A DNA stretch of 40,520 nt, taken from positions 73,179 through 113,698 of the forward strand of contig JBAZRH010000002.1 of the NCBI GenBank assembly GCA_041663045.1. The letters run 5' to 3'. Every line of letters begins with the position of its first letter. Positions within the stretch are counted from its first letter, which is position 1. The notes beneath the pieces are model-generated. The model did not search any database. It was not told where the DNA came from and saw only the letters and a list, made by a program, of their open reading frames with translations. Source of the stretch: Minisyncoccota bacterium (lineage in GTDB: Bacteria > Patescibacteriota > Minisyncoccia > Phycocordibacterales > GWA1-40-21). Positions 34,010 through 39,329 of the stretch are shown here, piece by piece. Made by a program: the position numbers and the translations under genes.

Positions 34010-35058
34010 CAATCCCCCAGTATTTTATCTATCTGCCTTTTTATCCCCTCTCCATTACAATACTTAAGCATACCCAAATAAGATTGGACGGCCTGTTTAA
34101 AATACTTTTCATCAACCAAACCTTTATCAAAATCCTCCTTTAATTTAACTAGCTTATTCAAAACCCTTTTCTTCGTCTTCGTCCTCAAAACCCTATAATG
34201 CGGAAGAGAAACATACCCTAGAAAATCCGTCCCTGAGATAATCTTACGCAAACTTATTTTTCTAGGATGTAGCTCTACCAAGAGTTTTTCTCTGAAAAAA
34301 TCTTGTATTCCTACAAGGCAACTTTTCAAAAACTCAAGATTATCAGCTAAAATAACAAAATCATCGCAATATCTAATATAATATCTGGCCTTAAGTCTAT
34401 GTTTTATAAACTGATCTAATTCGTTTAGATAGATATTTGAAAAAAGCTGGCTTGTAACATTACCAAGTGGCAAACCTTTGCCTTTTTCCTTTTCAAAAGA
34501 GCCGACAATCTTCTGAATTAAGTTCAATAAATCTCTATCCCCCACTTTTTTGCATATCAAATCCAGAAGTATTTTGTGGTCTATATTGTCAAAAAATTTT
34601 CTTATATCGCATTTCAATACATATCCGCTTCTCGTATAATTCCCAGAAACTTTCCTCGCAAACTCCTCAAATCTTTTAACCCCCGCATGCGTTCCCTTCA
34701 TCTCTCGTGAAGAATATGAATCAAAAATAAAAATAGGATTGAAAATCTGATATAATGCCTGATGCACGGCTTGATATAAAACCATATCCCTTATATCCGC
34801 CTTGTGTATTTCGCGAAGTTTTGGATCGCAAACTTTGAAAGCAAAGTATGGTCTGGGCTTCCACTGAAAAGTGGACAGCTCGCTATGCAAAGAAAAAATA
34901 TTTTCTTCAAGATTCAATTCAAAATCAGCCACTTCTTTTTTTGACCTTTTGCCCTTAGAAAACTTCCGCCAAGCCTTTAATAAATTTTTAATAGATATTA
35001 CATCACAAAAACTACAACTATGACGCCCCCCCCCCGCACGTGTTCGCAAAACTCCCAT
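34009..35058 (-). CDS. DGR reverse transcriptase
   Basis: ISIKNLLKAW..F.KGKR, CDIRKFFDNIDH, GLPLGNVTSQLFSNIYLNELD (GxxxSQ), YIRYCDDFVI, DFLGY; no endonuclease or maturase tail. Confidence 0.93.
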   Translation of the reverse strand: MGVLRTRAGGGRHSCSFCDVISIKNLLKAWRKFSKGKRSKKEVADFELNLEENIFSLHSELSTFQWKPRPYFAFKVCDPKLREIHKADIRDMVLYQAVHQALYQIFNPIFIFDSYSSREMKGTHAGVKRFEEFARKVSGNYTRSGYVLKCDIRKFFDNIDHKILLDLICKKVGDRDLLNLIQKIVGSFEKEKGKGLPLGNVTSQLFSNIYLNELDQFIKHRLKARYYIRYCDDFVILADNLEFLKSCLVGIQDFFREKLLVELHPRKISLRKIISGTDFLGYVSLPHYRVLRTKTKKRVLNKLVKLKEDFDKGLVDEKYFKQAVQSYLGMLKYCNGEGIKRQIDKILGD

Positions 35059-35392
35059 TATTCATAATATAAGAATACTACACAAAGATTTATATGTCTT
35101 TGGCCAAAAGCTCTCAAAAAGAGATAAACTTGGTATTCACGCAATCATTGAAAGAGTTTGTATGGATATTTTATCGTTATCCATAGAATCAGCTTATAAA
35201 AAAGAAGCTTTGAAAATACCTCCATTGGTATTACTTAGGATAAAAGTCGGTCTCCTGCAAAATCTTATACGAACAGAAAATGAGCTTAAAATTTTGGATG
35301 ACGAGACATATTTGCGATTTTCTGCGCAAATAGTGGAAATATCAAAAATGGCTAGTGGGTGGATAAACTATATGAACGCAAAACCTGCCTAA
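35020..35392 (+). pseudogene. avd: Avd-like four-helix-bundle accessory protein, frameshifted in a C10 run as assembled
   Basis: The frame upstream of ATG 35162 is open back to 35024 (VRKTPIIHNIRILHKDLYVFGQKLSKRDKLGIHAIIERVCMDILSL...LLQNLIR...EISKMASGWINY), an Avd-like pattern. ATG 35020 joins this frame only if the C run (35026-35035) is 9 or 12 long. Confidence 0.75.
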
Positions 35393-35405
35393 GGCAGGTT
35401 TTGCG
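35377..35405. other. 13-bp perfect hairpin just 3' of the TR; the avd stop codon is its loop
   Basis: cgcaaaacctgcc-taa-ggcaggttttgcg. Confidence 0.75.
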
Positions 35406-35408
35406 AGA

Positions 35409-35523
35409 AATTTCCTCACGCGCACCCATGTTGTCGTTCTCGTAGTCGGCGTTGTTCCAGTTGAACCTGACATTGCGATTGTTCGGGTTCCAGTTGCCGT
35501 AAGCCACCTTGCCGTCCGAAAGG
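35409..35523 (-). ncRNA. DGR template repeat (TR)
   Basis: 115-bp match to 35776-35890 with 14 mismatches, 13 at TR adenines (minus strand); 10 AAY codons in the VR frame; 34 adenines by my count. Confidence 0.93.
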
Positions 35524-35697
35524 GTATTTTGATATTTTCCGTCCGTATCACCGAAAGTCTTTTACAAGACCTTCTGAGTTTTCCCGCGGTAGAGCGAGCA
35601 TAGTATAAAAAATATCAAGCAATTTCTTTTTGTTGGCAAACCGTCATCTCTGTTTTAACAAAGCCGGCTTAACAGCCATTTTTATTATATAAAAAAA

Positions 35698-35731
35698 CCG
35701 GCACAAAGCAACTTTCATTGCTTTGTGCCGG
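35698..35731 (-). terminator. 14-bp hairpin downstream of the VR: terminator and/or DGR homing cruciform
   Basis: ccggcacaaagcaa-ctttca-ttgctttgtgccgg, followed by a T7 run on the minus strand, about 44 nt past the VR end. Confidence 0.75.
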
Positions 35732-35754
35732 AGTAAGGGTGAAGGGAGAGAGAA

Positions 35755-36507
35755 TTAAGGTTTAAGGGGAACCTCAATTGCCTCACGCGCACCCATGCCG
35801 TCGATCTCGCCGCCGGCGTTGATCCAGTGGAACCTGACATTGCGATCGGACGGGTTCCAGTAGCCGTAAGCCACCTCGCCGTCCGAAAGGCGTTCCGTCG
35901 GGAACCATGTCCAAGTCTCCGGATCAAGGTACTGATTCGTGGCTTCGTAGTATTGTCCGAATGCCAGAGCGTATACCTTGAGGGGAAGCCAGAGACGACC
36001 GGTTTTCACCAGAGTGTTTGGTGACTTGCCCATTGTATTCTTCGTTGGACGCGGATTGCGTTCAATGAGGAACAGTCTGGGTTTGTCGGAAGCTTCGTGA
36101 TATTTATACTTATTCACGTCCACTTCTTCGTACGCCTTGGACAGACCGTATTTCTGCAGGCTGTTCACGGCTTGACGGTTGTCCACGCCGGATGGTTGGA
36201 GAATCGCGATGACTTCCTTCCACGGCAGGACTTCCGGCAAAGCAAACATCTCTGCGATATTCGCTTTGTAGCCGAAGAGCTTATCTGCTTGGTGTTCGGC
36301 GAGACCGATGGCGAAGGAGAGGTTGTTGCCGACCGCGACTTGTGTCGCAATATCAACAAACTTCCCTTCAATCGCCAACTGAAGATGCTTACTAAGCATC
36401 TCCGGATCATACGGATACCCGCCCCGTTGAAGATACAGTTGACGCTGAATCTCCGCGAACTGGTTTCCGAGCTTGACCGACATTTCGCCTGTGACAATTG
36501 TTGCCAT
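35755..36507 (-). CDS. DGR target protein with a C-terminal variable region (likely CLec-type fold), no signal peptide
   Basis: The C-terminus LSDGEVAYGYWNPSDRNVRFHWINAGGEIDGMGAREA is encoded by the VR; AAGGA upstream of the ATG. Confidence 0.88.
   Translation of the reverse strand: MATIVTGEMSVKLGNQFAEIQRQLYLQRGGYPYDPEMLSKHLQLAIEGKFVDIATQVAVGNNLSFAIGLAEHQADKLFGYKANIAEMFALPEVLPWKEVIAILQPSGVDNRQAVNSLQKYGLSKAYEEVDVNKYKYHEASDKPRLFLIERNPRPTKNTMGKSPNTLVKTGRLWLPLKVYALAFGQYYEATNQYLDPETWTWFPTERLSDGEVAYGYWNPSDRNVRFHWINAGGEIDGMGAREAIEVPLKP
35776..35890 (-). repeat. DGR variable repeat (VR) ending in a GC-rich GGGTGCGCGTGAGG element
   Basis: Direct alignment with the TR at offset 367. Confidence 0.93.
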
Positions 36508-36560
36508 GACGAATTCCTTTCTTATCTTTATTCTTTTCTGTTGGGCTCAAGCGGTATGCC

Positions 36561-36619
36561 TTTGCCACAGAGGAAAATTTTGAGTTTTGATTCTTTTCAA
36601 AATTTTCCTCTGTGGCAAA
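36561..36619. promoter_or_regulatory. 23-bp perfect inverted repeat in the predicted 5' UTR of the DGR target
   Basis: tttgccacagaggaaaattttga-N13-tcaaaattttcctctgtggcaaa. Confidence 0.6.
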
Positions 36620-36896: not shown

Positions 36897-39329
36897 TTAA
36901 ACTAACCCCTTCATCTCCTTCCAATTATCCCCCACCGAGGCATCCACCTTGCATACCACACCAAGAGTTTTCTCTTTTGGCACGAGAGTTTCCATTATTT
37001 CTTTTATCTTTGGAACTATTTTTTCTATGATTTTACTGTCCGCTTCATAGACAAGCTCATCATGCACTTGGAGAATCAGCTTCACTTTTTCCGTGAGACT
37101 TTCTTTTTTCAAATATTCATCTACTTTAGACATTGCAAGCTTCACAATATCCGCTTCTGTCCCCTGTATCGGAGCATTTATCGCCATCCTTTCTGCCATC
37201 GCTCGGATAAAAGGAAGCTTTGAACGCAATCCTTCAAAATATCTTCTCCTGCCAAAAAGAGTTTCAGTATATCCTTTTCTTTCGGCATCGGCTTTTGTAT
37301 TTTCCAAATATTTTGCAAGACCATTGAACTTATTAAAATATTCGTCGAGATATTTCTGCGCTTCTTCACGAGTGGAGCCGAGATTTGCTTTTAGTGCATT
37401 CACACCCATGCCATACATTATTCCGAAGTTGATCACTTTGGCTTTTCTCCTCATATCTTTATCTACCTTGTCTGCCGATACACCAAAAACTTCAGAGGCT
37501 ACAACAGTATGCACATCCTCCCCCTTTCTGAAAATTTCCAAAAGCTTTTCATCGCCCGAGAGAAAAGCGGCGATACGAAGCTCCACCTGCGAATAGTCAA
37601 AAGCAAGAAGTTTGAAACCTTTTTCGGCAATAAAAGCTTTTCTGATATTTCTGCCAAGCTCGCTCGAGTTGGGGATATTTTGCAAATTCGGATCTGAAGA
37701 TGCGAGTCGCCCCGTGGTAGTCCCCGCCTGCAAAAACTTCGCATGAAGCCTGTTATTTGAATCCAAAAGCGTCGGTATGACATCTATATATGTAGAAAGG
37801 AGTTTCTGTAATTCTCTATATTCAAAAATCAGCGGAATAATAGGGTGCATATCTCGCATTTTCTCAAGCTCACTTTCCTTTGTGGAAAGTGCACCAGTCC
37901 CCGTCTTTTTCTGATTCTTCGGCTTAAGCCCGAGCTTTACAAAAAGTATTTCACCAAGCTGTTTTGGTGAATTCACATTAAACTCCCCGCCGGCATATTC
38001 TACGATTTTCTTTTCCAGACCAGAAAGTGTTTTGTGATAATCTGTCGAAAGCTTTTTTAGCTCGTCTGCATCAATCTTAACCCCATTCTTCTGCATTTCA
38101 TCTATGACAGAGATTATCGGCTTTTCTATTTCTTCCCAAACTTTCACCAATTCCTTTTTTTGCAATTCTTCTTTGATAATTTTCTCTGCACTTACCAAAT
38201 CCTTTGCTTTTGTAAAATTATAAATATCTTCAAGAGCTGGATTCGTAATATTAGAATTCAATAGCCAAAGCTGTACGCCAAGCTCTTTTAATTTCTCTTC
38301 ATCTGCTTTATCCATCACTTTTTCCACCATCCCTCCCGTTAGCTCCCCCTCCAACTTGGAGGCGTCGCCTCCAAGTGATCCGAAATCCATCCCGCCCTGC
38401 CCTTCGCTCTTCAAGATATTTGCCAATCTCGGGCCGAGAGTTCTGAATTCCAGATCACTCCAGACAGCCGAGATTTTATCAAAATCGACATTTGCACTCC
38501 ATGTCTTTTCGGGAATCTTAAAGTCGATCGGTGCATCGCGTCTGATAGTCCCGAGCATTTTGGAAAAGTTCGCTTCTTCTTCACCATCTGTAAGTAGACC
38601 GACAATTCTCTCTTTTATTCCAGCTTCGATAAAGGCTGTCTTGCCCTTCTTCAGCTTTTTATAAATATCTTCAATACTGCCGAATTTCTGTATCAAATCG
38701 CTTGCCGTTTTCTCACCAATACCTTTTATTCCGATAATATTGTCGGACGGATCGCCTCTCAAACCTTTATAATCCGGCAAAAGCTCTGGCCCAAAACCGA
38801 ATCTTGCTCTCACAGCTTTTTCATCATAAATAATCGTATCTTTAATCCCCTTTTTCAAAGTATAGACTCGCACTTTTTCAAGAGAGACGAGCTGAAGCGT
38901 ATCCATATCTCCGGATGCGATCACAATATCCAAATCTTTTATTTTTTTTGCTTTCTCCGTAATAGTGCCGATCATATCATCCGCCTCAAAACCTTCTTTT
39001 GAATAGACTGGGATATTTAATGCATTGAAGATGTCGTAAGATTTTTTTAGTTGCGAGACAAGCTCTTCATCTGCCTTTGCTCTGCCGGCTTTGTATTCTT
39101 TGTATGCTTCATGGCGATATGTCGGCTTTGGCAGATCATAACAGGCTACGATATAATCTGGTTTCAAATCAGAGATAATCTTCAAAAGCATTGTGGAAAG
39201 ACCATAGAGAGCGCCTGTTGGCTCGCCTTTGCTTGTGGCAAATTCAGGAAGCGCATGATATGCACGGTGAATGATAGCGTGAACATCAAGGAGTACCAGT
39301 TTTTTATTTTTTTCTTTTTTCGCAGGCAT
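36897..39329 (-). CDS. polA: DNA polymerase I (5'-3' exonuclease + polymerase; proofreading domain reduced)
   Basis: IIHRAYHALP, EADDMIGT, SGDMD, GDPSDNI.GI.GIGEKTA; TTTGRLASSDPNLQNIP, DYSQVELR, RRKAKVINFGIMYG, QVHDEL. Confidence 0.97.
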   Translation of the reverse strand: MPAKKEKNKKLVLLDVHAIIHRAYHALPEFATSKGEPTGALYGLSTMLLKIISDLKPDYIVACYDLPKPTYRHEAYKEYKAGRAKADEELVSQLKKSYDIFNALNIPVYSKEGFEADDMIGTITEKAKKIKDLDIVIASGDMDTLQLVSLEKVRVYTLKKGIKDTIIYDEKAVRARFGFGPELLPDYKGLRGDPSDNIIGIKGIGEKTASDLIQKFGSIEDIYKKLKKGKTAFIEAGIKERIVGLLTDGEEEANFSKMLGTIRRDAPIDFKIPEKTWSANVDFDKISAVWSDLEFRTLGPRLANILKSEGQGGMDFGSLGGDASKLEGELTGGMVEKVMDKADEEKLKELGVQLWLLNSNITNPALEDIYNFTKAKDLVSAEKIIKEELQKKELVKVWEEIEKPIISVIDEMQKNGVKIDADELKKLSTDYHKTLSGLEKKIVEYAGGEFNVNSPKQLGEILFVKLGLKPKNQKKTGTGALSTKESELEKMRDMHPIIPLIFEYRELQKLLSTYIDVIPTLLDSNNRLHAKFLQAGTTTGRLASSDPNLQNIPNSSELGRNIRKAFIAEKGFKLLAFDYSQVELRIAAFLSGDEKLLEIFRKGEDVHTVVASEVFGVSADKVDKDMRRKAKVINFGIMYGMGVNALKANLGSTREEAQKYLDEYFNKFNGLAKYLENTKADAERKGYTETLFGRRRYFEGLRSKLPFIRAMAERMAINAPIQGTEADIVKLAMSKVDEYLKKESLTEKVKLILQVHDELVYEADSKIIEKIVPKIKEIMETLVPKEKTLGVVCKVDASVGDNWKEMKGLV

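Follow-up and report, generated by a model that had tools for sequence, protein, structure and literature searches.

A run of ten C/G bases lies at the point where the avd and reverse transcriptase (RT) genes of a diversity-generating retroelement (DGR) overlap head to head, and in our reading it most likely acts as a slipped-strand phase-variation switch on the DGR, present here in the Avd-OFF state (estimated probability about 0.64). An uninterrupted run at this position is kept in about 130 related Patescibacteria cassettes, and its length differs between assemblies of otherwise identical natural populations. The effect on protein levels, the reversibility within a lineage and any selective benefit are inferred rather than demonstrated. 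Variation within a sample could only be deduced from contig breaks and from consensus differences between samples.

Organization of the overlap and its reading frames

The window analysed here is a stretch of 40,520 nucleotides of a Minisyncoccota bacterium (contig JBAZRH010000002.1). It contains the following features:

35026..35035: C10/G10 homopolymer tract, the proposed slippage switch, read as Pro codons in avd and as Gly codons in RT
35020..35067, plus strand: avd start codon (35020-35022) and the 15-codon dead-end frame it opens at C10 (stop TAA 35065-35067)
35036..35392, plus strand: Avd body (118 codons plus stop), joined in frame to ATG 35020 only at C9 or C12
34009..35058, minus strand: DGR reverse transcriptase ORF as it stands at C10 (349 aa), starting at ATG 35058-35056
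35063..35065, minus strand: RT start codon for the C9/C12 register, the complement of the conserved His codon CAT of the Avd motif P-I-I-H
35036..35038, minus strand: GTG, the only possible RT start in the C8/C11 register
35409..35523, minus strand: template repeat (TR)
35776..35890, minus strand: variable repeat (VR) at the C-terminus of the target gene
35755..36507, minus strand: DGR target gene (250 aa, no family match)

The TR and VR span 115 nt and differ at 14 positions, 13 of them at TR adenines. The RT matches RVT_1 (E 3.5e-20), whereas the closest NCBIfam model is the group II intron RT, below its cut-off. The Avd assignment is less certain: the body matches Pfam bAvd PF22296 (E 1.3e-07, residues 10-112; 32.5 bits against a cut-off of 40) and NCBIfam NF033474 DivGenRetAVD (E 9.1e-09, profile positions 2-103 of 104; 35.6 bits against a cut-off of 80) over nearly the full length, but in both cases below the curated cut-offs, and a profile search of solved structures with the Avd alignment gave no hit. 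The cassette is described as a DGR in which avd is inverted and nested between the TR and the RT gene.

At the junction, the ATG at 35020-35022 is followed by ACG, the ten C and then G. From this ATG the frame reads MTPPPRTCSQNSHYS and stops at TAA 35065-35067. The frame of the Avd body is open from 35024 to 35392 but has no ATG, GTG or TTG before 35162. On the minus strand RT is open from ATG 35058 (MGVLRTRAGGGRHS...), and the run supplies its codons 9-11 (GGG). To determine the effect of tract length we simulated C8 to C12. At C9 and C12 both genes are open, with an Avd of 123-124 aa (MTPPPARVRKTPII...) and an RT of 351-352 aa from ATG 35065 (MNNGSFANTCGGGRHS...). At C10 (the window) Avd is limited to 15 aa while RT is 349 aa from ATG 35058. 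At C8 and C11 the Avd frame ends after 16-17 aa and RT (342-343 aa) is open only from GTG 35038, a start whose function is not supported, given that this register usually has no start in the family (89 of 125 loci). These outcomes confirm the frame arithmetic of a preliminary description, which had proposed the run as a candidate switch with RT starts for both lengths. The run is far beyond chance: from base composition 0.008 C10 or G10 runs are expected in the window, which holds no other G/C run longer than 7. A promoter and terminator scan around the overlap gave matches at chance level only (4 against 2.2 +/- 1.6). A role of the tract as a Shine-Dalgarno-like element for an RT start downstream of it was rejected, since on inspection by eye the RT frame has no start codon between the run and the conserved N-terminal motif.

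Conservation of the tract and of its register

The Avd body finds 61 homologs, all carrying PF22296, from Taylorbacteria, Parcubacteria and Paceibacterota. Many of these begin with MTPPP, MTTPP or MATPP and thus read the C-run in frame, whereas others were called from a TTG just after the run or from a chance upstream ATG. We fetched 160 loci, of which 132 are unique at the tract. Nearly every one has an uninterrupted C-run (mostly 8-11 long) between an ATG and the Avd body, with the RT diverging on the other strand, down to about 35% Avd identity. Outside the tract CCC makes up only 16.6% of Pro codons, and the 647 kb of fetched DNA hold just one other G/C run of 8 or more, showing that the homopolymer is conserved at the nucleotide level.

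Of the 132 unique loci, 32 (24%) have the Avd ATG in frame with the Avd body, 68 carry one C too many (the +1 register, as in the window), 26 are in the third register and 6 are ambiguous. For each of 125 loci we then asked whether RT has an open start upstream of the G-run in each hypothetical register. In the ON register an RT ATG is found in 114 loci (91%), GTG/TTG only in 5 and no start in 6; in the +1 register these counts are 58, 38 and 29, and in the third register 11, 25 and 89. In the ON register the RT start is usually the exact complement of the His codon CAT in the P-I-I-H motif. Resampling of synonymous codons in the Avd leader (131 loci, 500 resamples) shows that the ON-register ATG is strongly enriched (126 observed against 64 +/- 5, reached by 0 of 500 resamples), and that absence of any start in the third register is also more frequent than expected (99 against 72.8 +/- 5.2, 0 of 500). 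Both genes are therefore selected to be read through the tract in one common register, even in the many loci whose assembled tract is out of that register. The second RT start noted in the preliminary description is real in the window, but it is not a general design feature: an ATG in the +1 register occurs in 46% of loci and is only modestly enriched (59 against 48.6 +/- 4.9, reached by 12 of 500). Alternative Avd starts after the tract, such as the TTG before P-I-I-H in many relatives, are not enriched (53 against 47.6 +/- 5), so Avd depends on the ATG upstream of the run.

Length variation in natural populations

Fifteen groups of loci from different assemblies have identical flanks. Five of these differ in tract length by one, with no other difference in 1.4-6.3 kb except in the VR. 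Examples are the fetched loci L013 and L101 (9 against 10 C, 6,335 identical bases) and L125 and L126 (9 against 10 C, 2,822 identical bases). A short tract (n=5) and a G8 run elsewhere do not vary.

Per-run Logan contigs (assembler contigs built for each public run, here X1 and X5 to X11) add independent samples. Population L125/L126 shows C9 in X9, C10 in X7 and C11 in X5 (21.7x), the latter being the in-register length for that locus, while contigs break at the tract in X6, X8, X10 and X11. Population L097/L098 shows C9 in X10 (112x), X6 (47x) and X8 (25x), and a break with nine C on both contig ends in X5 (120x), whereas the L097 assembly has C10, which is in register. Clean read-through at 112x shows that such breaks are not an unavoidable homopolymer artefact. 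The same populations show live DGR activity: the VRs of L097 and L098 differ at 20 positions, all at TR adenines, and runs X5 and X6 each hold at least two VR variants that account for only about half of the depth (against one each in X8 and X10). A comparison of tract state with VR heterogeneity was restricted to four runs of one population (mixed tract with mixed VR, C9 with mixed VR, and C9 with a single VR twice), which is too few to conclude anything.

For the window itself only run X1 holds the locus. One contig covers 34000-35035 and another 35026-36596; each ends with ten C and none spans the run, which indicates that words with at least 10 C are present in the reads and that the k-mer graph branches or fails at the run, but does not give allele counts. 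The VR lies within one contig identical to the window at 24.9x, which fits an idle DGR, though this is a single observation.

Interpretation and alternatives

Overall, the evidence is best explained by a contingency-type switch (translational phase variation by slipped-strand mispairing) built into a clade of Patescibacteria DGRs, and every part of the earlier proposal that could be tested with sequence data came out as suggested. As each ATG lies on its own upstream side of the same homopolymer, one length rule would gate both genes: in register Avd and RT would both be made and the VR could be rewritten, whereas replication slippage, presumably at a rate far above the substitution rate, would take both ATGs out of frame together. 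In the Bordetella phage model the bRT-Avd complex is necessary for cDNA synthesis (PMC6182149). The window's element should thus be idle, with RT still readable from ATG 35058, and the VR frozen until a one-base deletion restores the register.

Nonetheless, a simple ON/OFF switch with equivalent OFF states does not predict that the +1 register is about three times more common than either of the others. The modal tract length moreover follows the distance from the ATG to the run (distance 3 or 6 gives 10, distance 7 gives 9), which points to a preference for a register and not for a length. This might be due to leaky +1 slipping on CCC_C or transcriptional slippage (making +1 a low-expression state), to the partial availability of an RT start in that register, or to insertion-biased slippage after episodes in the ON register. 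Tentatively, the tract could even be a selected three-state gate: in register the VR is rewritten; with one base too many, as in about half of natural populations, the element would be in a favoured standby state in which Avd is off or only leaky, RT is often still readable from a second start and a single deletion restores activity; in the third register, where RT starts are depleted beyond chance, both genes are closed. A hypermutable repeat would in that case set the duty cycle of a programmed hypermutation machine, so that a successful VR variant can be frozen by a single slip.

The alternative that survives best, though we consider it unlikely, is recoding instead of DNA switching. Here the common +1 genotype would be the working one, with Avd (and RT from its His-antisense ATG) made by a +1 ribosomal slip of tRNA-Pro on CCC_C (tRNA-Gly on GGG_G for RT) or by RNA-polymerase slippage that drops one base on the 9-11-nt homopolymer, giving a constitutively low dose of the DGR proteins with DNA length changes as a side effect. 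The excess of the +1 register and its tracking of the ATG-to-run distance leave room for this, and since both canonical ATGs need the same one-base correction, a single type of slippage event would serve both genes. CCC_C is probably prone to +1 slips, and homopolymers of 9 or more may well support transcriptional slippage. However, true programmed shift sites keep one register, whereas here all three occur and flip between identical populations, including to the in-frame length. We found no conserved stimulator either: the 0-frame codon after the tract varies (CGA, CGC, CAA, CAG...), CGA is not rare (16% of Arg codons) and the 0-frame stop lies anywhere from 0 to 36 codons downstream. No RNA run holds the locus, and there is no RNA evidence.

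It is more doubtful that the tract is conserved for another reason (a G-rich element in the TR-to-RT transcript or DGR RNA, a protein-binding site, or a poly-proline/poly-glycine leader) with length variation as tolerated, unselected noise. Conservation is indeed at the nucleotide level, and the RNA downstream of the TR binds Avd in the phage model (PMC6182149) and in this cassette runs antisense through avd to the G-run. Yet the tract lies about 370 nt beyond the end of the TR and inside both ORFs, between each ATG and the conserved protein body, where any tolerated noise would inactivate both genes; the strong selection for one shared register makes sense only if translation through the tract matters. 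Finally, an assembly or sequencing error in the window (true C9, avd intact) is very unlikely: although homopolymers of 10 are error-prone and no contig of the source run spans the tract, both of its contigs end with ten C independently of the window's assembler, and the same out-of-register configuration (ATGNNN + C10) is the commonest in independent assemblies and is reproduced in replicate assemblies of other loci.

Mechanistically the tract matches the intragenic poly-G/C contingency loci of Campylobacter jejuni, Neisseria, Haemophilus and Helicobacter, in which an uninterrupted homopolymer of 8-11 nt lies just after the start codon, one-base changes between otherwise identical genomes toggle the frame, and a mixture of ON and OFF lengths is seen among isolates or populations. 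What differs is that the gated genes encode the enzymes of a targeted hypermutation system and not a surface structure or a restriction-modification gene, that one tract is shared by two divergent, antisense-overlapping ORFs with ATGs on opposite sides, and that the hosts are Patescibacteria (CPR). With the Bordetella phage BPP-1 DGR (mtd-avd-TR-brt) the element shares an RT plus a predicted Avd-like four-helix-bundle protein, adenine-specific TR/VR differences and a VR at the C-terminus of the target. In contrast, avd is here inverted and nested between the TR and the RT gene, overlapping the RT 5' end, the RNA downstream of the TR is antisense avd, and a homopolymer sits in both leaders. As in programmed +1 frameshifting (prfB type) and programmed transcriptional slippage (dnaX of Thermus, IS elements), a homopolymer or slippery codon separates a start codon from the ORF body by one base, but there is no fixed register and no conserved stimulatory codon or stop, and the DNA itself varies in length. 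No tract or phase switch is described for BPP-1 or in the large DGR survey PMC5758913, which mentions no such frameshifts in avd or RT, and in the literature that could be searched (not including the key CPR-DGR survey; PMC5436926; Paul et al. 2017) we found no paper linking DGRs with homopolymer switching.

The tract also matters for annotation, as gene callers truncate or mis-start avd and RT in most of these cassettes (the window's own avd is called as a 76-aa fragment); DGR surveys that require intact avd and RT would therefore misjudge these elements. DGRs are the most powerful natural protein diversifiers known and are especially common in the ultra-small CPR bacteria of groundwater, and how a cell keeps such a machine from endlessly overwriting a useful variant is an open question. 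A slippage-prone repeat in the shared start region of avd and RT would give a simple, heritable and reversible answer: most cells hold their variant, and a few diversify.

Tract register and variation among related loci

Among the related loci fetched for comparison (L001-L160), the register in which the tract holds one C too many is about three times commoner than the other two, and the modal tract length shifts with the distance from the ATG to the run. In addition, RT starts are depleted beyond chance in the third register. In contrast to the avd tract, a G8 run located 852 nt on the RT side of the tract in loci L013 and L101 (the only other G/C run of 8 or more in 647 kb of loci) is identical in these two assemblies, which do differ at the avd tract.

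Variation was also observed at and beyond the VR. For locus L097 (positions 1960-2100), two assembled VR variants (141-nt bubble contigs) in the public sequencing runs X5 and X6 together carry only about half of the flanking depth. Further rarer VR variants therefore coexist in one groundwater sample. In L139 against L146, two otherwise identical loci, we find besides the VR a second cluster of 11 differences, about 1.95-2.0 kb on the avd side of the tract, which may represent a second variable region or a second target.

Annotation of avd and an inverted repeat near the target gene

The following features of the window are relevant here:

35162-35392, the part of avd represented in the protein collection, a 76-aa fragment starting at ATG 35162
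36561-36619, a perfect 23-nt inverted repeat with a 13-nt spacer
36897-39329, minus strand, a polA-like gene

The 76-aa fragment is the only form in which the window's avd is represented, and relatives are variously called from a TTG after the tract or from chance upstream ATGs. Avd and RT in this clade are therefore systematically mis-annotated. The inverted repeat lies between the polA-like gene and the start of the DGR target gene, and is probably a terminator or a regulatory hairpin.

Paired start codons and orientation of avd

The two start codons show a mirror-image design, in which each gene's ATG is the complement of a conserved His codon (CAT) in the other gene:

35020-35022, ATG of avd, complementary to the His codon of the GGG-x-H motif in RT
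35063-35065, ATG of RT, complementary to the His codon of the P-I-I-H motif in Avd

For the Avd His, CAT rather than CAC is used far more often than codon usage predicts: the complementary RT ATG occurs in 126 of 131 loci (against a null of 64).

In the window (35020-35523) avd is inverted and nested between the TR and the RT gene. For the relatives we confirmed that avd and RT diverge head to head across the tract, although a TR/VR downstream of avd was seen directly only in a few loci (L057, L136, L097 and L139). The RNA downstream of the TR, which binds Avd in the Bordetella phage model, would here be the antisense of avd, and avd transcription would converge with TR-RT transcription.
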